The notes beneath the pieces are model-generated. The model had not been told where the DNA came from. It saw only the letters and a list, made by a program, of their open reading frames with translations, and made no database searches. Source: Thermodesulfobacteriota bacterium (GTDB lineage Bacteria; Desulfobacterota; Desulfarculia; JACQYL01). From it: a stretch of DNA of 64,000 nt. The position numbers and the translations under genes are program-made. The DNA lies in assembly GCA_963675595.2 (NCBI GenBank), contig CAXXLZ010000002.1:3680001-3744000 (forward strand), in the 5' to 3' direction. Positions 24,181-41,477 of the stretch are shown in pieces (within the stretch, counting starts at the first letter, position 1; each line of letters opens with the position of its first letter).

Positions 24181-24197
24181 GACGGTTCCTTTGGCAA

Positions 24198-24343
24198 CCT
24201 GTTGAAAAACGCGATCTGCGGCGTTGCGCTTCATCCCTCGTCACTGCGACGTACTCTATGTACGTCTCATTCCTCAGGATTTGCGCGCCTTGCATCTCAT
24301 CGTTTTTCAGCAGCCTGCCGCACCCGGTTTATTTCAACGGGCT
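24198..24343 (+). mobile_element. MITE-like repeat, family M
   Basis: CCTGTTGAAAAAC...TTTCAACGGG ends. Confidence 0.85.
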
Positions 24344-24440
24344 GTTGGGACGATATGTCGGCGAAACGATTGTCTGTTTTGTGTCCGCATCCTAACAGAG
24401 GCCGATCATGGTCTTCAATGGAAATGAAAATGTCGCAGGC

Positions 24441-24648
24441 ATTCACGGGGGAGGGGATTTTTTTATTTATTTATCGGGGGAAATAGGGTTGCTCGCTGAT
24501 TTCCAGCGTCCTTTGATTTGCTGAATCGGCAAAAACGAGCAGCATGTGCCGTCCAACCGATTAAAACACCTGAAGTTTTTAGGAAGGAGCCCGAGGGAAC
24601 CCTTTTTTCAAAAAGGGTTCCCTCGGATCCCCCTCTGAATGCTCACAA
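24441..24648 (+). repeat. Internally deleted paralogue of the R+C mosaic that flanks the IS110 element
   Basis: 24441-24483 is identical to 18701-18743; from 24494 it matches 20275 onward. Confidence 0.85.
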
Positions 24649-24859
24649 AATGTCTACTGCGCAGAGGGGTATTCATGGGACCATCACGCCCTGTGTTCCA
24701 AGCAATGGATCGACGGGTTCCTTGACCGGATTCGAGAACCTTCTTATAAGCTCTCTTTTGAACTCTCTCTTTCCTTCTTGAGTCCGGCTCACCGGGGGTC
24801 CGCAGTACCGGGTCGCGGGCCCGGACCGCTCTGAAACAACGCTATATGGAAGGCAACGC

Positions 24860-26389
24860 ATGAATCTCACGGATTTGCTTGTTCGATCTCGGGATCGTTT
24901 TCCGGAAAAGCCGGCCCTGATCATAGACTCGGTCTCCCTGACCTTCAACCGGCTGGCCGAAATGACGGAGTCGTACGCAAGCCGCCTCACCGGGCTGGAA
25001 GTGACCCGCGGTGATCGTGTCTGCTTTTTCATGGGCAATCGGGTCGAACTGGCGGGCCTGTACCTGGCCTGCTTCCGTCTGGGCGCGGTGGCGGTCCCCA
25101 TCAGTTGTTATTCCAAGCCCGACGAAGTGAAGTACGCCGTGGAACACTGCGGGGGAAGATTCCTCATCGTCGAGCCGGAACTGGTTTCCGGTGTGGCGGA
25201 TATGGCCTCCCAAGTGACCTCTCTGTTGCGCGTATATCGGATCGGGGCCGGCGGCCCGAATGAAGTTGCCCGTTTCGAATCCGTCACACCCGCCCCGGGC
25301 CCGCTTCCCCCGGCGAAAGTCCTGGAACCCTCTTCACCGGCGGTGATCCTTTACACCTCGGGCAGCACCGGGGCCCCCAAAGGGGTCACTCATACCGTGG
25401 GCTCTTTGACCCACAGCACCGATAACCGCTGCGCGGCCCTTGCCCACTACTGCGACGACGTCTATTTCATGACGGCCTATTTGTGCCACGGCGCTTCCCT
25501 GACCAGTGTCTTTCTGACCATGTTGGCCGTGGGCGGCACCTCGGTATTCACGCGTGAATTCACTCCCCCGGACTTCCTGGAGACCCTGCGGCACAGGCGG
25601 CCCACCGTGGCGGCGACGGCCCCCGCCCAGCTGAAGGCCGTTTTGGAGGAGCCTTCCTTGTCCCGAGAGGATTTCCGCTCCATCCGCTATTTCCACGTGG
25701 GGGGCGATGCCGTGCCCCGCGAGCTGTATCAGGCATTCGAGGACAAGACCGGAATGAAGTTGGCGGTGGCCATGGGCATGACGGAATGCGGCGGGTATCT
25801 GCTGACGCCTCCCGAGGGACCTTACAAGCCGGGCTCCATGGGCCGGCCCATCCCGGGAACTGAAATATGGCTGCTCGATGAAAACGGAGTGGAGGTCGCC
25901 CCCGGCGAGATCGGGGAGCTTGTGGTGCGCACCGGCGCCCTCATGTCGGGCTACTGGAACGATCCCGAGAGTACAGCCCGGGTCATTCAGGACGGCCGGC
26001 TGATGACGGGCGATCTGGCCCGATGCGATGAAGACGGGTTCGCCTATTTCGCCGGCCGAAATAAGAACATCATCATACGCGACTGCGGCAACGTGGCCCC
26101 GGTGGAAATCGAGGATGTGCTCAACTCTCACCCCAAGGTCAAAGCGAGCGGCGCGGCCGGAGTGCCCGACGGCGACCACGGGCAGGCCGTAACGGCGTTC
26201 ATTGTTCCCGTCGACATGGACGATCCCTCCACTGTCGAAGAGCTGGAAGCCTTCACTCGTAAGCTTCTGGCCGACCGCAAAGTACCAAGTCGGTGGCGGC
26301 TGGTTGGATCCATTCCTCTCACCCCCATGGCCAAAATCGACCGCAAGGCCTTGGCACGGATGGCTGAAGGCAAAGCCCCCCTGGAATGA
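24860..26389 (+). CDS. AMP-dependent acyl-CoA synthetase
   Basis: YTSGSTGAPKG, GMTE, TGDL, GR and KIDRK motifs. Confidence 0.92.
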   Translation: MNLTDLLVRSRDRFPEKPALIIDSVSLTFNRLAEMTESYASRLTGLEVTRGDRVCFFMGNRVELAGLYLACFRLGAVAVPISCYSKPDEVKYAVEHCGGRFLIVEPELVSGVADMASQVTSLLRVYRIGAGGPNEVARFESVTPAPGPLPPAKVLEPSSPAVILYTSGSTGAPKGVTHTVGSLTHSTDNRCAALAHYCDDVYFMTAYLCHGASLTSVFLTMLAVGGTSVFTREFTPPDFLETLRHRRPTVAATAPAQLKAVLEEPSLSREDFRSIRYFHVGGDAVPRELYQAFEDKTGMKLAVAMGMTECGGYLLTPPEGPYKPGSMGRPIPGTEIWLLDENGVEVAPGEIGELVVRTGALMSGYWNDPESTARVIQDGRLMTGDLARCDEDGFAYFAGRNKNIIIRDCGNVAPVEIEDVLNSHPKVKASGAAGVPDGDHGQAVTAFIVPVDMDDPSTVEELEAFTRKLLADRKVPSRWRLVGSIPLTPMAKIDRKALARMAEGKAPLE

Positions 26390-26704
26390 AGCATCCGTAT
26401 CCGTTCCCATCGTTTCCGTGGGAACGGGTTCCCCCGGTGACCCTGTGAACAAAAACGGTATCCGTTCAGAGGGGTATCCGAGGGAGCCCTTTTTGAAAAA
26501 AGGGTTCCCTCGGGCTCCCTCCCAAAAACTTGAAGTATTTTAATACGTTGAACGGCACATGCTGCTCGTTTTGCGAATTCCGTAGGTGATTCGCAAGGGC
26601 GAAACGGAGTCCCGTCCCTTCCGGGACGAAGCCGAACTTGGGAGCATCTTTGCCGATTCAGCAGATGTAGGGAACGTTGTGAGTGAGGAACCTGAATTCT
26701 TCAG

Positions 26705-26796
26705 CAGCCTCTCCGCCGAAGGCGGTGAGGCCTGTCCAAGCTGCTTTGTGAGGGGGGTCGGGGGAGGACTTTCTCGAAAGTCCTCCCCCGTGAATA
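26705..26796 (-). repeat. REP-like composite element, family R (left edge of the island)
   Basis: GCCTCTCCGCCGAAGGCGGTGAGGCC...GGGGGAGGACTTTCTCGAAAGTCCTCCCCCGTGAAT. Confidence 0.85.
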
Positions 26797-26807
26797 CATA
26801 CCAAAAA

Positions 26808-27265
26808 CGAACCATGGAAGTCGTCCCTGCGCTTTCATGCCCCGATTCCCCCCGGTCGGGGCCGTCAACGCGGTCCCATCAACCCCACGCGCTGACGGCT
26901 CACCCGTAGGGACGAGCCACAGTGCCCGCCCCGGGCTCGGCGGAACCGAGAAATCCGCCGGGCTGAACCCACGAGGTAGGGGCCACCGGTCTTCAACACT
27001 CATAGAACACGATGGATGTCTCAAAACCGGTTCCCGGCCCTTCCCCTGAAATCGTCCACAAAAATGACGGGAATTACCAATTGACGGTACCCACCTTTTC
27101 GAACATAAGATGAAAATGAGGAAATGCGCTCTTTCCCTGAAGAATCATCCGGACACGGTCAACTTGCCGCAAGACGGAGGCTCTGCCCCCGGTGACCGCA
27201 AGCCCCGATGACACATGGGCTCAAGCCGCCGATCTGCTTGCCCCTCCTTGCGGAGGATGAAGGAA
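26808..27265 (+). repeat. Long non-coding repeat B, copy 1 (~455 bp)
   Basis: Colinear with 28826-29282 over its full length. Confidence 0.9.
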
Positions 27266-27706
27266 GGATCGATTTACGCAGACGGTAGGAATCGAAACGA
27301 GTCCGACGGGAACGGTTTTCGTGCGCAAGAAAGGCCGGACCGGGAAGGGTGCGGCTAGCACGGGCAAGTTGAGCCCCGCGTGTCGTACGGTACTTTACTG
27401 GAAATTGTGTTTTCGGTCGCTTCCGAAATCATGGCCACATAAAGCAACCTGTTGTCGGTTACGAGTCCAACCGTTCCTGTGCAATCAATGCCGCCGATCG
27501 TTAGTTATGAATTCATTTCGTATAGTCGACCAAAGTGTGTATCAACCATAATGCAAGAAAGTTTGAATTAAAACTTTCCAATATCACACAGTCACATTTA
27601 CACCATCAGATAATGGAAGGATTTACAGAGGCGTCTTATACGGACGGAAACAAACAACTCAGAACCTTATGCGGATACATCCAATATTGTAGGCCGGAGG
27701 AAGAAT

Positions 27707-28198
27707 ATGAAGAAACTGATCGCTCTCGTAATTCTGATGTTAGCAGTTACCGCAGTCTGCCTCGCGCAAACCGGAGGGAAGCTGGTGTCCTTCGAACAGC
27801 TTTTCCCGCAGCCGCAACAACGCCTAATGGGACTCCACAAGCTTACAGCGAAAGAGAAGGAAGCCCTACGAGCACGCGTGGAAGCTTTGCTCGTTCAGAT
27901 TGCGGCAAACTCCACGTCGAAGGCAGCTGCTGGAGGAGAAGCAAGCGGTGGTGTTTATCCCGGAGTCGGTGGAGGCCATTGGGTAAACAAAAATGTCGAT
28001 AGCGGAACGTACATGATTTTGGAGGACGGATCGCTCTGGCAGATCGATCCTTTTGACAAGATCGATGCCATGTTGTGGTTACCGATCAGCAACATCACCG
28101 TCACGCAATCGTCATCTGGCTCGCCGGGATATGATTACCTTCTGATCAACACAGATGATGGCGAAAAGGCCCATGCCAAATACATAGGCAAACAGTGA
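27707..28198 (+). CDS. Secreted hypothetical protein (gene-cassette-like)
   Basis: GGAGG RBS, signal peptide, LEDGSLWQI motif; followed immediately by an attC-like site. Confidence 0.8.
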   Translation: MKKLIALVILMLAVTAVCLAQTGGKLVSFEQLFPQPQQRLMGLHKLTAKEKEALRARVEALLVQIAANSTSKAAAGGEASGGVYPGVGGGHWVNKNVDSGTYMILEDGSLWQIDPFDKIDAMLWLPISNITVTQSSSGSPGYDYLLINTDDGEKAHAKYIGKQ

Positions 28199-28199
28199 C

Positions 28200-28284
28200 G
28201 GCCAACAAGAGAATCGACTCGTACTTTTCAGACCGTACTGCTTCGCGTCCCGGCATGAAACAATGGTCATGCTGATCGTTCAAT
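28200..28284 (+). other. Degenerate integron attC-like site
   Basis: GGCCAAC-N5-AATCGACT...GGTCATG-N6-GTT: attC box spacing with an extrahelical C at L'' position 4. Confidence 0.55.
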
Positions 28285-28332
28285 AAATCATCCGATGGCC
28301 GAATATTCATAGCCTGTTCTTACTAAGGATCG

Positions 28333-28765
28333 CAGTGTGAAGCAGGGAACGTTGTTGACTAACATGACAAACGCCTGTAGGCCTTTGGAGTTGTTGATAC
28401 AGACGGGATGTCCCGACTAAAATCCCCTTCAAACGTATTCTAATTTCTTGTCAACACGTCCGTTCCGGATCGAAGACGACACATGACACTCCCGCGCGTA
28501 TGAGGCGGCCGATGGATCGTCTTGGTCGGCTTCCGTGAGCTCCTAATGTCTTCTGAAAGCCGGCAATAAGGTAACGGCAAGGAGTCTTTTTTGTTTTCGG
28601 GCGGTAAAAGAGCTTGGTCTATCGCACAGGGAACCGGCGCGACGTTTGGAGCTGAGTGCTCCCGCGATTGGTTATTCCGTTGAAAGAGGAGAATCCATTG
28701 CCGGTGAAAACGGGTATCGTTTAATGGTGGAGTAGCTTTCTTTTTTACCAGCGTCCCCATTGGCA
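28333..28765 (+). repeat. Long non-coding repeat A, copy 1 (~420 bp)
   Basis: Colinear with 33678-34092 and 38088-38522. Confidence 0.93.
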
Positions 28766-28825
28766 TTTATGCGCTCCAGGGATTCAACAACAGCGCCGGA
28801 TGATCTTCCGTACCCTGGGTACGAT

Positions 28826-29282
28826 CGAGCCAAGGAGGTCGTCCCTGTGCCCTCACGCCCCGATTTCCCCCGGTCGGGGCCGTCGACACGGTCCCATCAA
28901 CCCCACACGCTGACGGCTCACCCGTGGGGCGGGCCACAGTGCCAGCCCCGGGCTCGGCGGAACCATGGAATCTGCCGGGCTGAACCCACGGGGTAGGGCC
29001 CTCCTGGCTTCAACACCCCTAGAACAGGGCGAATGTCTCCAAACCGGTTCCCGGCCCTTCCCTCGAAATCGCCCTCAAAAATGACGGGAATTAGCAATTG
29101 ACGGTACTTCCTTTTTGAACATAAGATCAAAAAGGAGGAAATGCCCTCTTTCCTTGTAAAATCGTCCGGGCACCATCACATCCCCGGCAAGGAAGATGGC
29201 GTCCTCAGGTGACCGGAACCGCCGATGACACATGGACGCAAGCCATCGACCGGCTTTTACCCGCATACGGAGCAGGAAGGGG
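28826..29282 (+). repeat. Long non-coding repeat B, copy 2
   Basis: Colinear with 26808-27265. Confidence 0.9.
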
Positions 29283-29338
29283 CATGGATGTCCATAGACC
29301 GCTTCGGAGGTATTGACCATATAGAACAAACCATTGTT

Positions 29339-31214
29339 GATGAGTTCGTAAAAACCTCTCCGTAAAGGTATCTAGTTGAAAATATGAATAAAAATGGCAT
29401 TTATGGGTTGACCTTTCTTTTGGGTCCTGTATGATAAGTATCTGACTTGATTAATAATATGGTCCTTAGGGGGGTTGTTTTGTTTCGGCCTAAGAGAACG
29501 CAAAAGACCATTTTCGACCACGATATTTGCCTTCCCGCAGACAGGATCGAGGCGTTGGAGAAGACGTGGGCCGGTCCGTTCCGGCGCCTGGTGCTTCCCA
29601 TGATCGATGAGGAGTCTTTCCGGCCTTTCTACTGTGAGGACAACGGCAGGCCCAACAGACCCGTGGCCATCCTTGTCGGAGCGTGTGTTTTGAAGGAAAT
29701 GAACAGCCTGACCGATGCGGAAGTCTTGGGCGCTCTGGACTTCGATCTGCGTTGGCAATATGCCTTCAACATCAACGCCTTTGAATCTCACGTCTGCCAG
29801 AAGACCCTGCACAATTTCCGGACCTTGATTACCGACAACAAGCAAGCGCGGAGCCTCTTTACCGGAATCACGGACGCCATCATCGAGACGGCGGCCCTTA
29901 GCACGGACAAACAGCGGTTGGACTCCACACAGATCACTTCCAACATGGCTCATCTGAGCCGTCTGGGGCTCTTTACGCGCACCATCGAGGCGTTCTTGAA
30001 ACGGCTCCATAAGAAACATCCCAAGTTGTATGAGAAACTGCCCCGACTTTACGACAAGGCCTACTTGAAGCGCGCAGGCTATTTTGCCGATGCAAAATCA
30101 TCGCGGGCCAAGCGTCGTCTGGACAAGTCCGCCCGCCATCTCGCCGACCTGGTGGACCGCTTCCGAGGTCATCCGGAAATCAGCCGAATGAAAGAATACC
30201 GGCTGATGGCCCGACTACTGTCGGAGCAATGCCGTTTCACCGAGGGAGATCCCGACAAAACAGAACTCGAGAAGCCCAAGGAAATCCCTGCGGACTCCCT
30301 GCAGAATCCTTCGGATCCCGACGCCACCTATGGGCGCAAGGGCAAAGGATATAAGGCTTCCCTCACGGAGACCTGCGTGAAGGAAAATCCCTTCCAGGTG
30401 ATCACCGATGTGGACGTGGCCCCTTCCTATGACAGCGACCAGAAAGACGTGATGCCCGTTATCGAACGCCTGGAGGAAACGGGCCGCAAACCCGAAGAGT
30501 TGTTCGCCGACGCAGGCTACGGCAGCGGCGAGAACATCCTTCAAGCTCACGAGCACGGAGTCGAGCTTACCGCTCCGGTGACTTGCGGAAAAGCGCCGGA
30601 TCTCAATAAGATGCAGTTGAGTGACTTTGAAACGAACGAGGACTGCACCCAGGTCGTTTACTGTATCCGGGGGCACGCGCCACTTGAATGCAAGATCGTT
30701 GACCGCGGCAAAGCGGTGGAAGCCGTGTTTTCCCGCGAGCACTGTCTCCTATGCGAATTTCTCCCCATCTGTCCGGTAAAACGGATCAAGGGCGGAAATT
30801 ATCGACTGAAGTACAAGCGCAAGGACATGGCGACCTCCAAGCGCAGACTACAGCAGGAAAGCCATGATTTCAAAGAACGCTACAAAATCCGGTCCGGCAT
30901 CGAGGCCACCATCTCCGAAGCGGATCGGGTCACGGGATTGAAACGATCGTGGACCCGAGGCAAAAAACGGGTCACCTTATCTGTTTTCATGAAGGCCCTG
31001 GCCATCAACATCAAGAGGTTCGTCCAGAGCCGCCTTGATAAGGCCAAGAAGGCCCTTTCCAACTCGATAGAGGGAGGCAGCAACGATAATTTCCGTCGTC
31101 TTTGTAGCCTATGTCACGATGACAGTAACCTTGGCAGTGTTGCAATGGCCGCTTGAACTTCCAATGCTCCAAAAAACAGCCCTGTTCGTAAAGGGGGGTT
31201 CTTACGACGGCATC
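29339..31214 (+). mobile_element. IS1182-family insertion sequence
   Basis: TIRs GATGAGTTCGTAAAAACC / GGTTCTTACGACGGCATC; flanking direct repeat ATTGTT (29333-38, 31215-20). Confidence 0.88.
29480..31156 (+). CDS. IS1182-family DDE transposase
   Basis: DNGRP, RLDST, SDPDA, ADAGY and RYKIRSGIEAT motifs; probable TTG start at 29480 (ORF open from 29447). Confidence 0.9.
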   Translation: MFRPKRTQKTIFDHDICLPADRIEALEKTWAGPFRRLVLPMIDEESFRPFYCEDNGRPNRPVAILVGACVLKEMNSLTDAEVLGALDFDLRWQYAFNINAFESHVCQKTLHNFRTLITDNKQARSLFTGITDAIIETAALSTDKQRLDSTQITSNMAHLSRLGLFTRTIEAFLKRLHKKHPKLYEKLPRLYDKAYLKRAGYFADAKSSRAKRRLDKSARHLADLVDRFRGHPEISRMKEYRLMARLLSEQCRFTEGDPDKTELEKPKEIPADSLQNPSDPDATYGRKGKGYKASLTETCVKENPFQVITDVDVAPSYDSDQKDVMPVIERLEETGRKPEELFADAGYGSGENILQAHEHGVELTAPVTCGKAPDLNKMQLSDFETNEDCTQVVYCIRGHAPLECKIVDRGKAVEAVFSREHCLLCEFLPICPVKRIKGGNYRLKYKRKDMATSKRRLQQESHDFKERYKIRSGIEATISEADRVTGLKRSWTRGKKRVTLSVFMKALAINIKRFVQSRLDKAKKALSNSIEGGSNDNFRRLCSLCHDDSNLGSVAMAA

Positions 31215-31782
31215 ATTGTTGGTTTCGAGTTCTACCGATCTTTTTCGTCAGGTTCATGTGCAGTCGATACAGGAAGCTGTTATTCATGAAATCATTTAGG
31301 ATAGTTGGCAGAAGCGTGCCGCAGATATAATTGAAGTATGCTCAATACAAAGTATTATTCTGAGAACGTAAAAATAACATCATACACCTTTACAGCATCA
31401 GTCCTGACGGCAACAGTGCCAGATGATAATGAGCGACGGTACTATTTAATAGAATGGGCTAATTCCCTTTTCGGAAAGCTTCATGCAAGCTCAAAAAACG
31501 CATATAGAAATAGACTAAATACTTACAACAGGTTACGAAAATCGCAATAACTGGCAAGCATGACTTATTTCAGTAGGGAAATAAGAAGTTTAATCCACTA
31601 TGCGACGGGAAAATATGAAAAGTCTGGCAAATCAAAGCTGTTTAGAAAAACCAACATATTAGTTAAGTATCAATCAGTGCAAGCACATATTAATAGGAAT
31701 ACCATAACGCTAACGCTCTATTATTATAGCATATGCGGTGGGCGTCAGTCTTAATGAAAACCTCAATTGAGGGGATTCAGCC

Positions 31783-33639
31783 ATGTGTAAAATTTGTAGA
31801 CTGGTCTTTTCATTGGTTTGCTGTGTATTACTATTTGCGTGCTGTATGAAGAATAGTATCAAAACTGATAAAATAGCTTTAGTCGAAATAAAACCAATAG
31901 AAAATGAAAATTTGTCTGAAAATATATATGAAAACATGGATGCTATCTCCGAGGTGCGGTCATACCCTTTCTCTGTGCCGATCCTTGTATTGGCAGATAA
32001 CCAAATACATGACATCTTCAATATGTATGCTTTTTTTTATAGGACTAACCTTGCGGATGATATAGCCGGTTGTGCCATAAGACCTCCAATTCTTGATTTT
32101 TTTAATTACAATGGAATATTGCTATCTAAGGCATTAGAAAATTATGATAAGCCAAATAGGTTAATTTTGCATCTTGGAGATGCAGCAGATATGTCAACAG
32201 CTAACGAGCTATATAATTTTTTCGAGTTAATGAATAAATGCGGTTCTACTTGGTTTATGGCACCAGGCAACCATGATGGATTCTACTATGGAATGAGTAA
32301 TCCATTCAAATTCGGAAAAGAATGGGAAAAAGCTTCAACAGATATTTTCAGATCACAAGCAGATGCTGATACTAAGAATAATATCGGAGGTCAGCTAACA
32401 AAAGATAGATTTGTCGCCAGCTATTTAGCCGCCTTAATCCTTCAACCGAATGCTCCTTGGGCTGAAACATTGAAGTCTGAGCTCGATGTAAATATTAAAG
32501 ACTTAAGATTTAATAAGGAAACCTATTGTGACGTTGTGAGTCAGATATATAATAATGACATAAAATATAATAATCAAGAGATATATGAAAAGGAAATTGA
32601 CTTCTCGAAGATCAAAAATTCGAGACTGGATAAGTTAAAGTTTCATATTAATAGAAACGATATCATGCGAGGACAGTCATATATTATGCAATCATTAAAA
32701 ATAAACGATAATTTAGATAATATAAGTCAAAATGTATATATTATAGTACTTGATACATCAAGTTATAAGTCATGGCGAACAGTTTTTCACCCTTTTATCC
32801 CTTGGTCATGGCTTAGTAATGAATACAATGCAGGAGTGTGGGGCGAGATAGGCAAAGATCAAGCCTGTGTCATGAAAAGTTGGACAGACAGCTACTCTAA
32901 AGACTCAAAGTGGATTCTTGCTGGACATCATCCGTATAAAAGCATAAAAATGTCAAAAAACGTGAAAGAAGCATTTAATGTGACCCTTAATAAAGGAAAA
33001 TTACCATATTTCATTTCAGCTCATACCCACTCAGGGAATATTTTTCGGCACGATGATAAGTTTACTGAAATAAATGTCGGTAGTATAGTAGATTATCCTA
33101 TGGAATATAGAGATTTCCAGTTACGAATCGATTCAATATCCAATGTACATATTCAATCTAACCATTACTCACTTATAAATAGTTTTCTTAGTACATACAA
33201 GGATCAACCTAATTACATAATCAACTCGAGTTACTTAGACTACATGAATAGTAATGGCAATTCTCGGGAAATCGAAATTGTTATTAAAACCATGATATTA
33301 GATGTCATTACCGATATTCTAAACCAAATGAAAAACGAAGGGTTATGTGGAAGTTGTGAGAAGGAATTCAAGCTAGTCGAGGATTCGAAGAAAGTTATAA
33401 ATAGGCTAAAAGGCGTACCATCGCATCAAATACGTTTTGATAATGAGCTTGAGGAATTGCAGGCCTATCTGTTAGAGCTAAATGAAATAATACGAGATTC
33501 TAAGTTTCTTGAATCTGAAGTTGGCGAATATTATGCGATGAAGCATTCTTGTTTTGCCAGTAAAGCAGAACATGATGTTAATGGACGAATTAGTAAAAGG
33601 AGAGTCAATAAACTGCGACTTGGTAAGGCAACGAGGTGA
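31783..33639 (+). CDS. Calcineurin-like metallophosphoesterase, probably exported/lipoprotein, AT-rich
   Basis: ADNQIH, HLGD, PGNHD, GHHP and AHTH motifs; N-terminal hydrophobic segment ending in FAC. Confidence 0.85.
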   Translation: MCKICRLVFSLVCCVLLFACCMKNSIKTDKIALVEIKPIENENLSENIYENMDAISEVRSYPFSVPILVLADNQIHDIFNMYAFFYRTNLADDIAGCAIRPPILDFFNYNGILLSKALENYDKPNRLILHLGDAADMSTANELYNFFELMNKCGSTWFMAPGNHDGFYYGMSNPFKFGKEWEKASTDIFRSQADADTKNNIGGQLTKDRFVASYLAALILQPNAPWAETLKSELDVNIKDLRFNKETYCDVVSQIYNNDIKYNNQEIYEKEIDFSKIKNSRLDKLKFHINRNDIMRGQSYIMQSLKINDNLDNISQNVYIIVLDTSSYKSWRTVFHPFIPWSWLSNEYNAGVWGEIGKDQACVMKSWTDSYSKDSKWILAGHHPYKSIKMSKNVKEAFNVTLNKGKLPYFISAHTHSGNIFRHDDKFTEINVGSIVDYPMEYRDFQLRIDSISNVHIQSNHYSLINSFLSTYKDQPNYIINSSYLDYMNSNGNSREIEIVIKTMILDVITDILNQMKNEGLCGSCEKEFKLVEDSKKVINRLKGVPSHQIRFDNELEELQAYLLELNEIIRDSKFLESEVGEYYAMKHSCFASKAEHDVNGRISKRRVNKLRLGKATR

Positions 33640-33677
33640 AAAGGTTTTCTCTACGCACTGGGTCACATCCTATGAGA

Positions 33678-34092
33678 TAGGGCACGTTGTTGACCGACAT
33701 GACAAACGCTGGTATGCCTTTGGAGTTGTTGATACAGATGAGATGTCCCGACTAAGACGCCCTTCAAACGTATTCCACTTTCATGTCAACACGTCCGTCA
33801 CGGATTGAAGACGACACATGACACTACCGGGCGTATCAGGCGGCCGACGGATCGTATTGGCCGGCTTCCGAGAGGTCCTGATGCCTTCTGAAAGCCGGCA
33901 ATAAGGTAAAGGCAAGTAGCCTTTTTTGTTTTTGGGCGGTAACAGAGCTTGGTCCATCGCACAGGGAACCGGCGCGACGGTTGGAGCTGAGCGCTCCCGC
34001 GGTTGCTTATTCGGTTGAAAGAGGGGAGTCTATTGCCCGTGAAAACGGGTATCGTTTAATGGCGGAGTACTTTACTTTTTTACCATCGTCCC
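33678..34092 (+). repeat. Long non-coding repeat A, copy 2
   Basis: Colinear with copies 1 and 3; lies ~115 bp upstream of dsr1. Confidence 0.93.
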
Positions 34093-34208
34093 TCTATTCC
34101 ATTCGATTTGTTATTCGATATGGGTCCAACAACAGGCGGACAACTGGTGATATCCGGCTCGCAACTAGTCGACCGCTGAACCCGAGCGAACTTCTTGGAG
34201 GCAAATTC

Positions 34209-37200
34209 ATGCCCGCCTTCATAAAAGACGGTCCCGATATTCCCGAACGACTATTGCAGGCGCAAGAAGATGGGCGCGTGGTCTTCTTCTGCGGTGCGGG
34301 TATTTCCTATGCCGCAGGGTTACCCGGATACTCGGATTTGGTGAAGAGGCTCTATAAAGAAGCGGGAGTCATCCCGAATCCGGTGCAGCAAACTGCGATG
34401 AAGAAGCACCAGTACGACACAGCCTTTGGTCTGTTGGAAGGTTATGCGCTTGGTAAGCGCAAAAGGGCACGATCATTTCTTTCGCAGATATTGAGCCCGA
34501 ATTTGGATGGTTCACATGCGAAAACCATGCACGAAGCATTGCTAACCCTGGCGAGATCGAGGGAAGGGAAGCTGCGTCTCGTAACCACTAACTTCGACCG
34601 GATTTTTGAGGAGATTCTTGGCGACAGCGAAGAGCGTTTCGTAGCTCCTCTGTTACCCGTCCCAAAAAGTCGATGGTGCGGATTGGTATACCTGCACGGG
34701 CTGTTACCTTCAGAGCCGGATCCAGACAAGCTCAACCGGCTCGTGCTGTCCAGCGGCGATTTCGGTCTTGCCTATCTTACGGAGCGTTGGGCCGCTCGTT
34801 TCGTAGGCGAGTTGTTCCGCAATTTTTCGGTTTGTTTCGTCGGGTACAGCATCGGCGACCCCGTGTTGCGTTATATGATGGATGCTCTTGCCGCTGATCG
34901 GCTGATGGGAGAATCTTCGCCGGAGATGTTCGCTTTCGGTGGCTGTTCCAAAGGAAAGGAAACTGAAACGTACAACGAATGGCAGGCGAAAAACGTCACG
35001 CCCATAATGTATTGGAAGCACCGAGAACACGTCCATCTACGTAGGACCTTGCAGGCTTGGGCCGAAGTCTACCGGGACGGCGCAAGCGGCAAACGGATGA
35101 TCCTTGCCCAGCACGCCGCCAGCCCACCGTTGACCTCGTCTCGGGAAGACTATGCCAACGGCAGGGTCTTATGGGCACTTACCGATGGATCGGCGGCCAA
35201 ATTTTTCGCCGACCTCGATCCTGTTCCTCCACTTGAATGGATTGATGTCCTATCCGTGAATCAGTTCGGGATAGAGGATCTGCCCCGGTTTGGAATCAAT
35301 CCTGATGGCAAAGAAGACAAGAATCTGTCTTTCAGCATGATTCGACGGCCCGCGCTACATAGGTTTGCACCGGAAATGTGCTTGGTTGACACGGGTGCTC
35401 GATTCAGTAGATGGGACGACGTGATGAGACATCTGGCCCGCTGGCTCACGCGTCATCTCAACGATCCCCGCCTTGTACTGTGGTTGGCCGAACGGGGTGG
35501 AAGGTTGCACGATGTATTTGTACAACTTGTCAAAGATCGAATCGACGACGTCGATAGATGGCAGCGGACGGATAACAGGGATGAGATGGAATGCATCCTC
35601 AAGGCCGCACCCAACGCCATCCCAATACCTTTCATGCGTACCCTATGGCGGCTTTTTTTAACCGGCCGCGTAAAGACCTCCGGGGACAGAGCAATCAACT
35701 TATACGCATTGGAGGAATGGATCAGAAGGGACGGCTTTACACCAAGTTTTCGTCTGAGGTTTCTGGAGTTGATAAGGCCGCAGGTGAAGTTGCGCGGTGA
35801 GTTTTTCCCGGGAAACAATCGAGCCAGCGTTTCGTCCCAACCGAATCGTACCGAACCATCGGTTGGGTGCGAAGTGGTCCTGTTCGACGATCATGTTCAT
35901 GACACATTGCAGGAATTCAGGAGGGGAGCACACTGGCAAGCGGCTTTGCCGGGCATGTTGAATGACTTTACCGCCCTACTACGCGATGCTCTCGATCTGA
36001 TGGGGGAACTGGGTGGAGCGAACGACCAAGAAGACCGCAGTTATTTCGACCAGCCTTCGATCAGTGAGCATCCGCAGAACAGGGGATTTCACGACTGGAC
36101 CGCGCTGATTGAGCTGACGCGCGATGCCTGGTTGGCCAAGGCGCAAACGGATCCTTCGCGAGCAAGGCATGTGGCCCAAGAATGGATGAGCGTACCCTAT
36201 CCCCTCTTCAAACGTTTGGCCTTCTTTGCCGCCGCTAACAGCGAAGCCGTGCCCCCTGCCACCGCTCTTGGCTGGCTGCTTGACGACGATCACTGGTGGT
36301 TGTGGTCGGATGAGACCGAGCGAGAGGTCATGCGATTGTTGGTGGCTCTGGCGCCGAAACTGGATTCTGAGAGTCGGGGAAAGTTGGAGGAAGCGATCTT
36401 GAAGGGGCCCCCGCGTGAAATGTTTCGGGTTGGACTCGATACTGATAAATTGAACGACATGTTAGACCATGAAGTATGGCTCAGATTGGCCAAAGTGAAG
36501 AATACCGGGGCAACATTGGGTCCACAGGCGGAAACAGAATTGGGTCGATTGGCGGCCCGAAATCCTGAATGGGTACTGGCCAGAGACGAACGTGACGAGT
36601 TTCCTTTTTGGATAGAGAGCGGGTGGGGCGCCAAAGCGGATGGTTCGGCAGACGAGAAGCCAATTGGTCGAGCTTCACTGGTCGAATGGCTCAGAAAGCA
36701 TCCTAAATGTGACCGTTTCAGTGGAGATGACCTTTGGGGCAGAATCTGTCGAGATGATCTTTCAACCGCCGTTGCTGCTTTGGACGACCTGATGTGGGAA
36801 GACCTAGTTTACGGTGATCGATGGGCTGAGCTGTTACAGGTCGCTACAGAAGAAGACTGTCTTGACCTTTCTTGGCCAAGCGTACCAGCAGTTCTCATGA
36901 AAGCGTCAAACGAGCTTCTCATCCAGATCGACCGCTATCTCGGTCGATGGCTGGCATCTCAAGCGGAGGTATTCAAAGAGAAAGAAGAGGTGTTTTTCGG
37001 CCTTATTCGTCGTCTTTTCGAGCTGGATTATGGGGACGACCAACAAGAGCCAGACCCCGTGATAAGAGCGATCAACCATCCTGTCGGACTCGCAACGAAA
37101 GCCCTATTGAATTGGTGGTATCGCCAGGAACTGAGAGAAGCCAAAAGTCTTGAGGATCAGATTCTCAACCTGTTCACAGAACTATGCGACACCAACGTGA

Positions 37201-37982
37201 ACAAGTTCCACTACGGTCGTGTCGTATTGGCGACCCATGTCATTTCGTTGTTTCGCGTTGATGAGGAGTGGACGCGAAATCATTTGCTACCCTTGTTCGA
37301 CTGGCGGCAATCCAATACTGAGGCCTATGGTGCTTGGGGAGGTTTTCTGCAATCTCCGAGGCTATACGGACCGCTTCTATCCGAAATCAAGGGACCCTTC
37401 TTGGAAACGGCAGCACATTACAGCCAGCTTGGGCATTTCGCTGAGCAATTTGCGGGCCTGCTTGCCTTGACCTCCTTGCTTCTTAGCGAAGTATTCACAG
37501 AAAGAGTACTTGCAGAGGCGACAAACAAGTTGCCTGAAAAGGGCCTGGTAAGTGCATTACAAACGGTTACCCGCGCCCTTAAGGGTGCCGGTGACCAGAG
37601 CCAAAATTATTGGAGAAATCGAGTTGCGCCTTATTTGAAGCAGATTTGGCCAAAAAGCAGCGGAAAGCTTACTTTCGCAGTGTCGGAAAACTTCGCAAGG
37701 CTTTTCATTGCTGCTGGAGAAGCCTTCCCGGAAGCGATGCACGAGTTCCACGATTGGCTGAAGCCAGTGCAGTATCCGGGTTCCATCATTCACGGCTTGC
37801 ACGCAAATCGTCTATGTACTCGGTTCCCATCGGATGCCCTTGCTTTATTGGCTGCCGTGATCGGCGAAAACCCGGGCAGGATGCCTGGTAGGCTCCGGAA
37901 TTGTCTTATCGATATCCGTGAGGCGAACCCCGAGTTGGCTGAGGACCCACGCTTTCAAAGGCTCCAACGACTCACCGAATAA
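34209..37982 (+). CDS. dsr1: Anti-phage defence-associated sirtuin Dsr1 (SIR2_2 + DUF4020-like)
   Basis: GPDIPERLLQAQEDGRVVFFCGAGIS start, VTTNFD, YLHG, FVGYS.GDP and AINHPVG motifs; GGAGG RBS before ATG 34209. Confidence 0.85.
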   Translation: MPAFIKDGPDIPERLLQAQEDGRVVFFCGAGISYAAGLPGYSDLVKRLYKEAGVIPNPVQQTAMKKHQYDTAFGLLEGYALGKRKRARSFLSQILSPNLDGSHAKTMHEALLTLARSREGKLRLVTTNFDRIFEEILGDSEERFVAPLLPVPKSRWCGLVYLHGLLPSEPDPDKLNRLVLSSGDFGLAYLTERWAARFVGELFRNFSVCFVGYSIGDPVLRYMMDALAADRLMGESSPEMFAFGGCSKGKETETYNEWQAKNVTPIMYWKHREHVHLRRTLQAWAEVYRDGASGKRMILAQHAASPPLTSSREDYANGRVLWALTDGSAAKFFADLDPVPPLEWIDVLSVNQFGIEDLPRFGINPDGKEDKNLSFSMIRRPALHRFAPEMCLVDTGARFSRWDDVMRHLARWLTRHLNDPRLVLWLAERGGRLHDVFVQLVKDRIDDVDRWQRTDNRDEMECILKAAPNAIPIPFMRTLWRLFLTGRVKTSGDRAINLYALEEWIRRDGFTPSFRLRFLELIRPQVKLRGEFFPGNNRASVSSQPNRTEPSVGCEVVLFDDHVHDTLQEFRRGAHWQAALPGMLNDFTALLRDALDLMGELGGANDQEDRSYFDQPSISEHPQNRGFHDWTALIELTRDAWLAKAQTDPSRARHVAQEWMSVPYPLFKRLAFFAAANSEAVPPATALGWLLDDDHWWLWSDETEREVMRLLVALAPKLDSESRGKLEEAILKGPPREMFRVGLDTDKLNDMLDHEVWLRLAKVKNTGATLGPQAETELGRLAARNPEWVLARDERDEFPFWIESGWGAKADGSADEKPIGRASLVEWLRKHPKCDRFSGDDLWGRICRDDLSTAVAALDDLMWEDLVYGDRWAELLQVATEEDCLDLSWPSVPAVLMKASNELLIQIDRYLGRWLASQAEVFKEKEEVFFGLIRRLFELDYGDDQQEPDPVIRAINHPVGLATKALLNWWYRQELREAKSLEDQILNLFTELCDTNVNKFHYGRVVLATHVISLFRVDEEWTRNHLLPLFDWRQSNTEAYGAWGGFLQSPRLYGPLLSEIKGPFLETAAHYSQLGHFAEQFAGLLALTSLLLSEVFTERVLAEATNKLPEKGLVSALQTVTRALKGAGDQSQNYWRNRVAPYLKQIWPKSSGKLTFAVSENFARLFIAAGEAFPEAMHEFHDWLKPVQYPGSIIHGLHANRLCTRFPSDALALLAAVIGENPGRMPGRLRNCLIDIREANPELAEDPRFQRLQRLTE

Positions 37983-38042
37983 ACGCCCCTTCTTTCGTTA
38001 TCCCTCCATAATTGCGCAGGGGGCCGTCCTCCATTTCTCCCC

Positions 38043-38098
38043 TCGACAAACCACCGGCCTCCGGTCCCTCCACGGCCGGGCGGTTTCCAGTTGTGAAG
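38043..38098 (-). pseudogene. Duplicated 3'-terminal fragment of the amidase gene
   Basis: Encodes [17 protein letters not shown], identical to the amidase C-terminus (39264-39319). Confidence 0.9.
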
Positions 38099-38522
38099 TA
38101 GGGGACGTTGTTGACTAACATGACAAACGCTGGTAGGCCTTTGGAGTTGTTGACACAGATGAGATGTCCTGACTAACACGCCCTTCAAACGTATTTCACT
38201 TTCTTGTCAACACGTCCGTTCCGGATCGAAGACGACACATGACACTCCTGCGCGTGCTTGGCGGCCGACGGATCGTCTTGGTCGGCTTCCGTGAGCTCCT
38301 AATGTCTTCCGAAAGCCGGCAATAGGGTAAAGGCCAGAAGTCTTTTTTGTTTTTGGGGGGTAAAAGAGCTTGGTCTATCGCACAGGGAGCCGGCGCGACG
38401 GTTGGAGCTGAGCGCTCCCGCGGTTGGTTCTTCCGTTGAAAGAGGGGAATCCATTGCCCGTGAAAACGGGTATCGTTTAATGGCGGAGCAGCTTACTTTT
38501 TTACCGGCCTCCCCATCGGCAC
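38088..38522 (+). repeat. Long non-coding repeat A, copy 3
   Basis: Colinear with copies 1 and 2; fused directly to the amidase-tail duplicate. Confidence 0.93.
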
Positions 38523-38541
38523 CATAAGGATACCAAAATAA

Positions 38542-38667
38542 CTCAAAAAAGGAAGATTGCTGGTCGTAATCCATACTTTTCGAGAAGAAAGTGAAGTGGC
38601 CGTCACTATTAGAAATATTTCAAGCCGAAAAGCAACAATGCAGGAAATCAAAACCTATGGTGAGTGA
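38542..38667 (+). pseudogene. 5'-truncated BrnT-family toxin remnant
   Basis: Translates to KKGRLLVVIHTFREE...IRNISSRKATMQEIKTYGE*; in-frame TAA at 38539 and no start codon. Confidence 0.78.
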
Positions 38668-38669
38668 AC

Positions 38670-38870
38670 ATGAGAAAAGAGTATGATTTTTCAAAAGGAG
38701 AAAAAGGCAAGTTTTGTCATCCGGATATGAAATTGAACATTCCCATTTATCTTGATGATGAGGTTTCAGCTTTTGTCGACAAAATCGCTTCGAAGAAGGG
38801 AATTGACCGATCCTCGGTAGTGAACGAGCTTTTCAAGGGTGATATAAAGCTCGCTGAGGCCATGGAATAA
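38670..38870 (+). CDS. BrnA/CopG-like antitoxin
   Basis: MRKEYDFSKGEKGKF...IYLDDEV...VNE motif, immediately after the BrnT remnant. Confidence 0.8.
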   Translation: MRKEYDFSKGEKGKFCHPDMKLNIPIYLDDEVSAFVDKIASKKGIDRSSVVNELFKGDIKLAEAME

Positions 38871-38879
38871 ATTTCCTTC

Positions 38880-38937
38880 GGAGAACAAAGGCATCCACCG
38901 GATCGCCGTTAAGCGACCGCTTGATGCCGACTGCCGA
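38880..38937 (+). other. Degenerate attC-like remnant
   Basis: AAC-N5-CATCCACC...CTTGATG; terminal GTT is missing. Confidence 0.35.
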
Positions 38938-39100
38938 TGGCTGTTGTTCAATTCAAGTACTATTATCCTATCCTTGAGCCTCGATCGGCGCGTGACACTC
39001 AAGAATACCTGATGAATACACAATTCGATCAAAGGGCCAAAGCCTCGGCTCCTCAACGGCCGGGAACAGGAACAACATCCAGCGAGGACACCTACTGATC

Positions 39101-39193
39101 CCTCAGCCTCTCCGCCGAAGGCGGTGAGGCCCGCTTGAAACGTTTCAAGGGGGGCGCACGGGGGGAACTTTTTGAAAAGTTCCCCCTGTGAAC
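39101..39193 (-). repeat. REP-like composite element, family R (right edge of the island)
   Basis: GCCTCTCCGCCGAAGGCGGTGAGGCC...GGGGGAACTTTTTGAAAAGTTCCCCCTGTGAA. Confidence 0.85.
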
Positions 39194-39263
39194 GATTACA
39201 GATCGGGAACGGGTTTGAAATCCGCCCCTACGGGTTCACTGCCGCGCAGGCAGCCCCCTCCTC

Positions 39264-40694
39264 TCAACAAACCACCGGCCTCCGGTCGCGCCACGGCCGG
39301 GCGGTTTCCAGTTGCGAAGCCACACGAAACAAGGTTGTTTCGTCGCCGTATCTCCCCATGAATTGGATCCCGATGGGCAAACCTTCGCCGTTCCAGAACA
39401 GGGGCACGGTCATGGCGGGTTGTCCGGTTACATTGGCCGCCGCGGTAAAGGGCATGAATTCACCGGACCGGAACAGGCCCTTGAGGGGTTCTTCCGGCGG
39501 GGAGTCGAAGGTGCCCAGCGGAACGGGCGGTTCCGCCAGGGTCGGGGTGAGCCACAAATCATAGGTTTCAAAGAATTGCGCGATTTGTCGGGAAATCCCC
39601 TGCAGCACCGTGAGGTTGCGGACGTGGTCCGCGGCCGTCTGCTTGAGGCCGATTTGGTACCAGGCCCAGGTGAGGGGTTCGAATTCCTCCGGAGACAGGC
39701 TCTTGCCCGAAAGCCGCGCCATGTCCATCATGTCCGCCGTCTTGCCTCCGGCCCACAGCTTGAACAGAGCGCTGCCCATGGCTTTGACGTTCATTTCCGG
39801 GGAGGCTTCCTCCACGTGATGGCCCAGTTCGGAACACAAAGCCGCCGCTTTTTGCACCGCGTCCGCGCAATCGGGATGCACAGGATCCCCCTTGGGGGTT
39901 CGATCCGTGAAACCGATGCGCAGGCGTCCGGGTTCCACGCCCAGTTCCCGGCTGAAGGGGCGCTGCGGAGCCGGCGCATAGTAGGGATCGCCCGCGCCGG
40001 GACCGCTGGTGGCGTCCAGCAGGGCGGCGCTGTCGCGGATGGACCGGGTCACCGCGTGTTCACACACCAATCCGTGCATCACGTCCCCGAAGTCGGGACC
40101 CAGCGGATTGCGGCCCCGCGTGGGCTTGAGCCCGAACAGGCCGCAACAGGACGCGGGAATGCGGATGGACCCGCCGCCGTCGTTGGCGTGGGCCATGGGC
40201 ACGATACCTGCGGCCACGGCGGCCGAGGACCCGCCGCTGGACCCTCCGGTGGTGCGTTCCGGATCCCAGGGATTCCGGCAGGGCCCGAAGAGTCGGGATT
40301 CCGCCGTGGGCAGCAGGGCCAGTTCGGACACGTTGGTCTTTCCCAGGAGCACCAAGCCGGCTCGTTTCCAGCGCAGCACGATTTCACTGTCGTGATCCGG
40401 AATGAAATCCTTCATGAACCGGCTGCCGGAAGTCATGGGAAGCCCGGCCCAGAACGCCTGAAAGTCCTTGACCAGAAAAGGCACGCCCCGGAAAGGTTCC
40501 ACGGGAGCCGCGTCTTTGGCCGCTTCCAGAGCCTGGTCGAACGCCTTGGCAATCACTGCGTTCAATTTCGGGTTCAGTGCCTCGATGCGTTCCACGGCCG
40601 CTTGAACCAGTTCCAACGGGGTGATTTCTCTCTTCTTGATGAGTTCCGCCTGCGCAACGGCGTCCAGGAAAGCCAAGTCTTGGTGATCGACCAT
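39264..40694 (-). CDS. Amidase signature family enzyme
   Basis: VKD, GKTN, GGSSGGS and [10 protein letters not shown] motifs. Confidence 0.95.
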
Positions 40695-40994
40695 GGAAAA
40701 TTCCTTTTAGAGGCTTGAGGGTTGGTTTTGGATCAGGGATGGGCGGGGGGGGAACTTCTGAAAAAGTTCCCCCCCGTTGCCCCCCTTCCAAACTTCCAAA
40801 GCGCGCCGGCCCGCCTTCGGCGTGACGGCTGACGGGCGAGTCCGGGAGAATCGCCGCTGCGAATGAGCCGAAAAAACAGTATAGCCGAGGGGCGTAGGTT
40901 GGATCAATGGATGGAGTTCGCGGAATGAGGGGCCGGAGGGGCGCAGGTGTGGGCTCAATTGGACATGGATGGTGGTTGACGGGCTTGAGTTCGT

Positions 40995-41135
40995 CGTTTG
41001 TGGAAGAGAGCGCGTCGATGTATAATCTGCAGGTAGCTCCCATGGAAGTGCTGCGACGGCGGCGAGGCCAAGGTGGTTCAGGTGCGCCAAGTTCGGGCGG
41101 TGATTCTGAAATATAACATGGGAGGTGATCTGTAG
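40995..41135 (+). pseudogene. Frameshifted HicA-family toxin remnant
   Basis: VEE...NLQ, then in another frame GEAKVVQVRQVRAVILKYNMGGDL* (41061-41135) abutting hicB. Confidence 0.6.
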
Positions 41136-41348
41136 ATGCTGAGATACGAGATCATCATTTATTGGAGTGAGGAGGACGGCGTGTTTGTGGCGGAAGTTCC
41201 CGAATTGCCGGGTTGTGCCGCACATGGCGCAACGGAGGAAGCCGCCCTCAAAAACGTGAAGGATGCCGTTGGGCTGTGGATCGATACGGCTCGGGAATTT
41301 GGAGATCCGATTCCGGAGCCCAAAGGGCGTCGTCTCATGTACGCGTAG
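41136..41348 (+). CDS. hicB: HicB-family antitoxin
   Basis: YWSEEDGVFVAEVPELPGCAAHG.T.E.A...GDPIPEP motif. Confidence 0.9.
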   Translation: MLRYEIIIYWSEEDGVFVAEVPELPGCAAHGATEEAALKNVKDAVGLWIDTAREFGDPIPEPKGRRLMYA

Positions 41349-41477
41349 AACCGTGACGGTAGCGGTACCGATGCGGCCTTGCACGGCCGGACCTCTTCGG
41401 GTACGGCTCGATCATCGGTGGGAGAGGATGAACAGAGAATGTCATTGTCGGGAATCAACAACCCAAAGGAGAACCGA

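Follow-up and report, generated by a model that had tools for sequence, protein, structure and literature searches.

The 64,000-nt window analysed here (the whole stretch from position 3,680,001 to 3,744,000 of contig CAXXLZ010000002.1, assembly GCA_963675595.2, from a Thermodesulfobacteriota bacterium) carries an accessory island between an acyl-CoA synthetase gene and an amidase gene, and three copies of a ~430-nt repeat, repeat A, stand in this island at the borders of unrelated cargo modules. We identify repeat A as a member of the TIRtrons, ~1.1-kb units in each of which terminal inverted repeats flank a single gene for a Y1/HUH transposase (TIRYT) that has a helix-turn-helix (HTH) at its C-terminus. 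Judged from its sequence, A is probably a non-autonomous, pseudogenised and internally deleted TIRtron copy, derived from one deleted ancestor that multiplied within this genome lineage. A first-pass annotation of the window had proposed an undescribed gene-capture system in which A served as the recombination arm or expression leader of each module. That proposal is not supported, as A is a decayed copy of a described class, and descent from a known insertion sequence (IS) was the very alternative the annotation had set against its own proposal. The candidate for an undescribed system is thereby removed: the repeat is what remains of an already described kind of element, and the accessory island around it is an ordinary one. 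Plain coordinates below are those of the window; coordinates prefixed C1 or C2 lie in the genome at large.

TIRYTs were described as genes for tyrosine transposases like the RAYTs (REP-associated tyrosine transposases; REP, repetitive extragenic palindrome), located between terminal inverted repeats many of which share the sequence GGGGWSAS, and the repeat families were called “moderately abundant”, occurring as single, dimeric or grouped copies (Di Nocera, De Gregorio and Rocco 2013, PMC3733652). Most TIRYTs belong to subclass 2.1 of TnpA-Y1 and have a C-terminus resembling Bac_DnaA_C or an HTH (Quentin et al. 2018, PMC6006769).

Repeat A as a probable deleted TIRtron

A 300-nt core of A was recovered by a repeat finder in three direct copies (28336-28635, 33671-33970 and 38092-38391) with 88–91% identity, in agreement with the three colinear plus-strand copies annotated at the outset. 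MAFFT alignment with flanks extended the homology to ~430 nt and gave both ends as sharp, with unrelated sequence on either side, which places A1 at 28337..28765, A2 at 33672..34105 and A3 at 38093..38521, all on the plus strand; A3 is bordered by a pseudo-tail of the amidase gene on its left and by a truncated brnT gene on its right. All copies share one layout, in which a left terminal repeat and ~75 nt of left end are followed by ~165 nt without assignment and then by the 3′ remainder of the TIRYT gene, up to a right end that is degenerate. The left terminus is the 24–28-nt terminal repeat of the TIRtron family with 0–3 mismatches. The 3′ part represents the last 45–62 codons of the TIRYT gene and matches positions 277–321 of a hidden Markov model (HMM) that we built from nine full-length TIRYT proteins (E 2.2e-9 for A1, 3.9e-7 for A2 and 6.3e-9 for A3). 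A less deleted variant at C2:4306375-4307140 matches positions 225–290 of the same model (E 6.2e-8).

Alignment of 14 genomic copies revealed one sharply bounded outer motif, GGG(G)ACGTTGTTGACTAAC(A/G)TGACAAA, and a fuzzy scan located this terminal repeat at 24 sites in the genome at up to four mismatches. Its start, GGGGACGT, fits GGGGWSAS at six of eight positions. Inverted terminal repeats at C2:143171(+) and C2:144232(−) enclose an intact TIRYT gene of 322 aa (C2:143207-144175), the sole full-length copy in the genome. The predicted protein contains an HUH motif (H-I-H) and the tyrosine within ...RYIHLNP..., and matches Pfam Y1_Tnp (E 1.8e-11) with C-terminal HTH_23 (E 1.1e-4) and HTH_3 (E 1.3e-4) domains; against the NCBIfam model REP_Tyr_transpos (REP-associated tyrosine transposase) it scores 65.3 bits, under the cutoff of 80.

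Translation of A1, A2 and A3 in one common frame gives a decayed 62-residue HTH tail that closes at a stop codon. The annotation's statement that the copies share no open reading frame (ORF) thus stands for intact ORFs and fails for this decayed one. A phmmer search with the tail against 1.84 billion representative proteins returned 457 proteins at E ≤0.001. Among the five longest of the matches listed (236–335 aa), Y1_Tnp is present in those of 329 and 335 aa, in one case together with Bac_DnaA_C, and the other three comprise an N-terminally truncated protein of 325 aa with Bac_DnaA_C only, a response regulator with Bac_DnaA_C, and a protein of 263 aa without a family. Bac_DnaA_C was found in the relatives P0133, P0083, P0014, P0029 and P0045. 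Within the window the tail itself has nine amino-acid differences per pair of copies, as counted by eye, and most base changes alter the protein, indicating that the tail is not under selection and is now neutral sequence.

Several features are shared with the described TIRtrons. In the master unit of this genome, inverted repeats beginning GGGG enclose a Y1/HUH gene that is RAYT-like and has a C-terminal HTH, the repeats are moderately abundant (24 sites) and occur singly, paired or grouped, they are not GTAG REPs, and A carries the left repeat together with the 3′ end of the TIRYT gene. The HTH_23 and HTH_3 matches of the intact gene and the Bac_DnaA_C domains among relatives of the A tail likewise resemble TnpA-Y1 subclass 2.1. 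A differs in being gene-less and internally deleted with a degenerate right end, a form not described in the consulted portions of PMC3733652 and PMC6006769, and in its clusters of uniformly oriented copies, which are set apart by kilobases of unrelated DNA. One intact enzyme gene accompanied by many short non-coding derivatives with its ends also recalls REPIN/RAYT systems and miniature inverted-repeat transposable elements, as do abutted inverted pairs of the terminal repeat in other genomes; A, however, is 430 nt long, has one good end, and lacks both a palindromic doublet and a GTAG-type REP hairpin. IS200/IS605 elements are less similar, as the ends here are inverted repeats rather than subterminal hairpins and the enzyme is 322 aa with an HTH rather than ~130–150 aa.

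A search of Rfam over 24000–42000 (E up to 1) found nothing in A or in repeat B, the second repeat of the island (copies B1 and B2, described below); the single match, to a miRNA, was at chance level (E 0.96) and lay outside A. Readings of A or B as a Tn7-like end, a group II intron or an integron attC were dropped in view of the Y1/HTH identity, the empty Rfam search and chance-like folds.

If A were a functional non-coding element, acting as a promoter or leader, a terminator or a small RNA under selection at each module, signals of such a function might be expected within it. A1 does contain a promoter-like TTGATA-18-TAAAAT with 10 of 12 matches (28394-28423), A2 contains a terminator-like hairpin with a T-run (33908-33924), dsr1 begins with an ATG at 34209, ~100 nt past the end of A2 as read from the sequence, and the brnT′ and antitoxin ORFs beside A3 have no upstream region of their own. 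Across 26400–39400, however, promoter-like sites number 19 against an expected 12.8 ± 3.4 and terminator-like sites 12 against 14.6 ± 4.2, so that both scans remain at chance, and the −10 hexamer of A1 is not retained in A2 or A3. Rfam is empty for A, the left end of A folds no better than shuffled sequence (z 0.06 and 0.23), and the 18–35 private changes per copy are evenly spread. A3 disrupts brnT instead of leading an intact module. We consider a selected non-coding function highly improbable, and the expression leader of the earlier proposal finds no backing.

Distribution and history of the A copies

BLAST of A against its own genome, as the first-pass annotation had suggested, detected further copies of its first 200–240 nt on C2 near 330–334, 592–596 and 4306–4308 kb, with matches of ~28 nt elsewhere. 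Altogether ten A-lineage copies form four clusters, with two copies at 330–333 kb, three at 592–596 kb, three in the island and two at 4307 kb. A solute-binding-protein gene on the other strand separates the 330-kb copies, a methyltransferase gene and another IS1182 separate those at 592–595 kb, and an IS fragment lies between the copies at 4307 kb with a glyoxalase gene downstream. As the other clusters stand beside ordinary genes, A appears linked to dispensable DNA in general rather than to defence cargo.

A1, A2 and A3 have 21, 35 and 18 private differences distributed along their whole length, all three differ at 10 sites, and the 4307-kb copy mostly agrees with the majority base, giving a star-like pattern. 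No mosaic or gene-conversion blocks were found among the A copies. Their flanks show no homology past the element ends, with the scores of all 13 flank pairs falling within the range of 300 shuffles each.

These observations bear on an origin by local segmental or tandem duplication, in which a [B-cargo-A] or [A-cargo-tail] block was copied and its cargo later replaced, with no element-specific mechanism. The alternation of B1 and B2 with A1 and A2 (B-cargo-A, B-cargo-A) is suggestive of such a process, and the left boundary common to B1 and B2 is absent from other B copies. A duplicated piece of the amidase tail beside A3 has diverged from its source (92% identity) about as far as the A copies from each other (89–91%), which is compatible with one episode, and G(Y)GAAG microhomology is present at both candidate end points. 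On the other hand, flanks without homology are not what this origin would leave, the cargo between copies is wholly unrelated, and the 4307-kb copy is as close to A1 and A3 (92%) as these are to each other. Discrete ends, unrelated flanks and dispersed copies together favour multiplication as an element over segmental duplication, to which we assign little probability.

Beyond this genome, an exact-motif scan found the terminal repeat at nine loci in GTDB species genomes, all titled as deltaproteobacterial or Desulfobacterota metagenome-assembled genomes (MAGs), and in 91 metagenome stretches. Of 86 terminal-repeat loci examined, 35 match the intact TIRYT (tblastn). Full-length TIRYT genes with 78–87% identity lie between inverted motifs in L068, L069 (and L070 on the same contig), L073 (and L074 on the same contig), L080, L096 and L097, the motifs being ~1.06 kb apart (e.g., L069, L073 and L080). 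Internal deletions like that of A, with the first 28–80 residues joined to the last 35–130, occur in L024, L051, L090, L065 and L035. The architecture of A is thus a recurrent product of the TIRtron family. Two 300-nt miniatures (L044 and L054) retain the HTH end only, L095 and L101 contain tandem left-end stubs, and direct pairs of the terminal repeat are found in four metagenome stretches (L030, L077, L095 and L101). The A lineage itself was not found elsewhere: in a DNA search none of 60 relatives, the nearest of which are related at family level only, matched A, and none of the 86 terminal-repeat loci held a match to A1 of at least 45 nt.

Two further arrangements were noticed among these loci. 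In L021 (2001-2055), L026, L055, L094 and L106, terminal repeats stand head to head ~7–21 nt apart and form palindromes of ~55–67 nt, as REPIN-like minimal derivatives. In L024 (2081-2421), L051 (2088-2631) and P0007, which come from unrelated samples, the N-terminal 63–76 residues of TIRYT are joined to the HTH tail with little or nothing in between, and P0007, a metagenome protein, is an in-frame deletion form with a single ORF of 124 aa. Such forms might be small regulatory proteins instead of debris.

In the history we propose, the deleted ancestor of A would have multiplied by transposition-like events, with catalysis presumably supplied in trans by an intact TIRYT, for instance that encoded at C2:143207-144175. 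Of the resulting copies, three would have landed in the accessory DNA that separates the acyl-CoA synthetase gene from the amidase gene, a stretch that would also have acquired IS1182, the Dsr1 gene, the brnTA module and the low-GC phosphoesterase gene. The position of A at module borders may then reflect a tendency of such elements to accumulate in dispensable DNA and to cause or mark local rearrangements. For TIRtrons, the results add to a natural history that includes an exact 24-nt end common to Desulfobacterota MAGs and sediment-type metagenomes, recurrent deletions that join the gene start to the HTH tail, tandem left-end stubs, and same-orientation clusters with foreign DNA between copies. 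If TIRYT cuts at these ends, the locus would offer a convenient natural setting in which to learn what such enzymes do, pairing a single intact enzyme gene with ten defective substrates.

The amidase junction and the module borders

A decaying duplicate of the 3′ end of the amidase gene, comprising its last 18 codons and 3′ untranslated region, lies at 37980..38098 on the minus strand between dsr1 and A3. The annotation had listed an amidase tail in this place. Without indels, 38037-38098 aligns with 39258-39319 of the amidase region over 62 nt at 92% identity; with indels allowed the duplicate spans ~120 nt (37980-38098 against 39217-39319) and reaches to directly after the dsr1 stop codon. 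Its own stop codon is mutated. The duplicate ends exactly where A3 starts, at ...CCAGTT|GTGAAGTAGGGG, and the real amidase gene continues past this junction as GCGAAGCC, which resembles the terminal GTGAAGTA of A. The eight outer bases of the terminal repeat travel with the element, as seen in nested copies in L095. No amidase-tail remnant was found left of A1 or A2, so the duplicate flanks only the last 1.2 kb of the island (A3-brnT′A-REP). Nor did any other motif site among the 24 outer flanks have a duplicated flank like that of A3; the other repeated outer flanks are IS ends, REP-like sequences or A-lineage sequence.

With its left end at the tail duplicate and its right end at a truncated brnT, A3 indicates that A ends were involved in local rearrangements or lie where these occurred. 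To that extent the annotation was right to regard A as a discrete unit linked to recombination, in that A, as a transposon derivative, has defined ends, and one of those of A3 lies at the amidase-tail junction. Either the amidase tail received a unit [A3-brnT′A-REP-tail] by insertion, or the A3 terminus was the end point of a tandem duplication or of an adjacent deletion. In the first case a circle carrying a copy of the tail might have integrated, and in the second the duplication may have used the G(Y)GAAG microhomology between the amidase tail and the left terminus of A.

Several observations weigh against the account of A given here, in which deleted TIRtron copies multiplied and gathered in dispensable DNA. 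The left terminus of A3 and the end of the amidase-tail duplicate coincide to the base, which is the outcome expected of an A end active in joining modules, and both flanks of A3 are truncated and unrelated, so that A3 is not a simple insertion. Each of the four A-lineage clusters is uniform in orientation, a pattern far from random that passive accumulation alone does not explain. At the right end, the terminal repeat is reduced in every A-lineage copy to roughly its last 9 nt, and mobilisation of A by an enzyme that recognises the terminal inverted repeats is therefore not assured. An N-terminal TIRYT coding stub suspected by eye in the first half of A was not recovered by the HMM (E >1). 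Finally, transposition by a TIRYT has to our knowledge never been demonstrated experimentally, and we are not aware of laboratory work that has tested the class.

Some of these features would be explained if the island grew by accretion of cassettes, with a TIRYT acting in trans to cut at successive A left ends, the right ends being degenerate, free circles of A with all DNA up to the next A, and reinsert them beside G(Y)GAAG-like sites as direct arrays. The amidase-tail duplicate would then be the footprint of the unit [A3-brnT′A-REP-tail] inserting into the amidase tail. In keeping with this, the three A copies are co-oriented at borders of compositionally different modules, the Dsr1 and brnTA units both end in ...CCAGTTG(T/C)GAAG followed by an A left end or the amidase body, the amidase junction resembles the A terminus as described above, the A-lineage copies elsewhere are likewise clustered in one orientation, direct terminal-repeat pairs occur in the four metagenome stretches listed above, and an intact TIRYT is present in trans. 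Other observations speak against it. We inspected four public sequencing runs from one study over 23500–42500 as contigs, which lose rare forms, and no A-to-A joint was present among the 15 joints listed of 90. A-lineage DNA is confined to this genome in the searches of 60 relatives and 86 loci, an amidase-tail remnant is missing left of A1 and A2, and the other clusters hold an IS fragment or ordinary genes, some of them on the opposite strand. The star-like private changes fit a single old burst better than serial import of modules. We therefore regard cassette accretion as unlikely, and the more general notion that TIRtron left ends serve as cassette borders, with TIRYT-released A-cargo circles building integrase-free arrays of defence and toxin–antitoxin genes, as slightly less likely still. 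Were it true, it would be a single-strand-transposase analogue of gene capture by ISCR elements and integrons, and the first activity assigned to the TIRYT class.

Both of those systems provide useful comparisons. Units of ISCR1 are flanked by a duplication of the 3′-CS. As in ISCR/IS91 and IS26 arrays, direct derivatives of an HUH element alternate with unrelated cargo in the island, and as in ISCR/IS91 a duplicated piece of a neighbouring gene flanks the last unit. The enzyme here, however, is a Y1 TIRYT, whereas IS91 encodes a Y2 and IS26 a DDE transposase, the A array contains no transposase gene, and no sign of movement of an A-cargo unit was found. The island also resembles an integron cassette array in its same-strand, promoter-less genes between copies of a recurring non-coding element and in lacking a recombinase inside the array. 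Here the recurring element is a 430-nt transposon remnant instead of a 60–140-nt attC hairpin, and no intI was found in the island, the genome beyond it not having been searched for intI. The two stretches annotated as attC-like fold as single-stranded DNA no better than shuffled sequence (z +0.86, −1.51 and −0.18; a test of folding only, with 200 shuffles for each value).

Direct duplication of the amidase 3′ end is also reminiscent of an integrative island at the 3′ end of a gene, but neither a tyrosine nor a serine integrase was found in the insert. The annotated absence of an integrase or recombinase was borne out, as none of 15 ORFs between 22795 and 42733, a range that includes the island, and none of 99 stop-to-stop frames from its non-genic parts contained such a domain. 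The integrase of an integrative island may have been deleted. Overall, what has built up at the 3′ end of the amidase gene is an ordinary island made of accessory genes, copies of ISs and remnants of transposons. Synteny at the amidase locus gave no neighbours in common in three relatives (G001, G002 and G006), and the state of the locus before insertion is accordingly not reconstructable.

Island cargo, repeat B and neighbouring features

The island is flanked on its left by the acyl-CoA synthetase gene (24860..26389, plus strand; Pfam AMP-binding, E 1.2e-78; NCBIfam long-chain-fatty-acid--CoA ligase subfamily) and on its right by the intact, convergent amidase gene (39264..40694, minus strand; Pfam Amidase, E 2.9e-98), which has orthologues of 56–66% identity in three of 12 relatives. 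From left to right we recovered the order first described, with B1, a 163-aa gene, A1, B2, IS1182, a metallophosphoesterase gene, A2, dsr1, the amidase-tail copy, A3, and brnT′ with an antitoxin-like ORF, all oriented with the plus strand. The strong contrast in base composition reported for the cargo also proved real, with module GC ranging over 0.32–0.56, from 0.32–0.36 at 31500–33500 to 0.51–0.56 in dsr1.

Among the cargo, dsr1 (34209..37982, plus strand) encodes an apparently complete defence-associated sirtuin. Its product scores 1645.9 bits against NCBIfam NF041818 (cutoff 1400), covering model positions 3–1261 of 1263, and 1408.8 bits against PADLOC Dsr1. In the adjoining low-GC segment (GC 0.32–0.36), a gene at 31783..33639 on the plus strand encodes a protein of 618 aa whose N-terminal part holds a calcineurin-like phosphoesterase domain (Pfam Metallophos, E 1.2e-9). 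Neither PADLOC nor NCBIfam gave a match to it, and it could be an unclassified defence gene. The 163-aa ORF (27707..28198, plus strand) has no family in Pfam, PADLOC or NCBIfam; its hydrophobic N-terminus, judged by eye only, suggests a secreted product. To the right of A3, brnT′ (38542..38667, plus strand) retains only the C-terminal third of a gene for a BrnT toxin (positions 50–77 of the 77 in Pfam BrnT_toxin, E 1.5e-5) and is followed by a 68-aa antitoxin-like ORF (38664..38870, plus strand), named brnA by its position only, with weak matches to an NCBIfam MazE-family antitoxin (E 1.4e-4, under the cutoff) and to DUF6364 (E 0.032).

Copies of the repeat REP-R are present on both sides of the island, at 26682..26787 and 39081..39186, where direct-repeat families D5 and D7 pair them. 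The annotation had taken them as brackets of the island, and their positions agree with this, but REP-R has 129 copies in the genome at up to three mismatches, 10 of them inside the window, and so does not mark an island boundary. Joints in the public runs that skip 26669-39101 might be taken for island-less alleles; they contain 24–37 other letters between sides of 33–52 nt and lie inside the 129-copy REP-R, and were read instead as other REP loci. Contigs of two runs, X1 and X2, confirm the junctions between cargo and A at 27070-28473, 31191-33746 and 34038-38122, and these runs may represent the source sample, while contigs of X3 and X4 provide partial cover at low depth. No RNA run was listed among those containing the stretch.

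Repeat B is a second non-coding repeat of up to ~750 nt, composed of a promoter-like core, AAAAATGACGGGAATTNCCAATTGACGG, followed after ~18–19 nt by TAAGAT or TATAAT and then by a leader of ~480 nt. B1 (26808..27570, plus strand), with its promoter-like core at 27064-27087 and long conserved leader, extends farther than first annotated, to ~27570, by alignment with two further genomic copies. B2 (28826..29285, plus strand) has a promoter-like TTGACG-18-TAAGAT at 29098-29127, is 82–88% identical to B1 over 26808-27263, and loses homology to it near 29280, ~50 nt upstream of the IS1182 insertion. The leader is ~80% conserved among three copies, and a different gene, ORF or IS insertion follows each copy of B. 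Reading frames of B have no Pfam match and the repeat itself none in Rfam. RNAalifold of the three leaders gave a covariation term of +1.93 and no support for a conserved structure, with three sequences only. Further B copies in this genome (G000) lie at C1:509352-510000 and C1:120179-120900, and the B core occurs at 17 sites genome-wide (e.g., C2:1203679, C1:1024823, C1:1026677 and C1:160944). In four elements of ~280–430 nt, one of them split by an IS21, a TIRtron terminal repeat at one end is combined with an inward-pointing B-core promoter at the other; they may represent a miniature element that carries a promoter, or else a gene for a small RNA.

An IS1182-family IS (29337..31215, plus strand) follows B2. 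Its transposase (29447-31156) matches Pfam DDE_Tnp_1_6, DDE_Tnp_1 and DUF772 and scores 197 bits against NCBIfam IS1182, under the cutoff of 270. The element has 21 full-length copies in the genome at ≥99.9% identity and its insertion is recent. In contigs of all four runs its right end is joined to its left end through the four letters AGTA, a joint that suggests the presence of circles or tandem copies and therefore an element that is active at present.

Inverted repeats of 108 nt (24532-24639 and 26465-26572, 91% complementary) bracket the acyl-CoA synthetase gene. A joint that skips 24235-26458 is present in contigs of three runs, with 34 other letters between its sides in X4, the one run that lists them, and may only reflect other copies of the 108-nt repeat. 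Finally, beside the 4307-kb A cluster, C2:4308043-4309440 contains a 349-aa ORF without a Pfam match and an 88-aa ORF that appears HicB-like by eye, and this segment may be another small accessory island.

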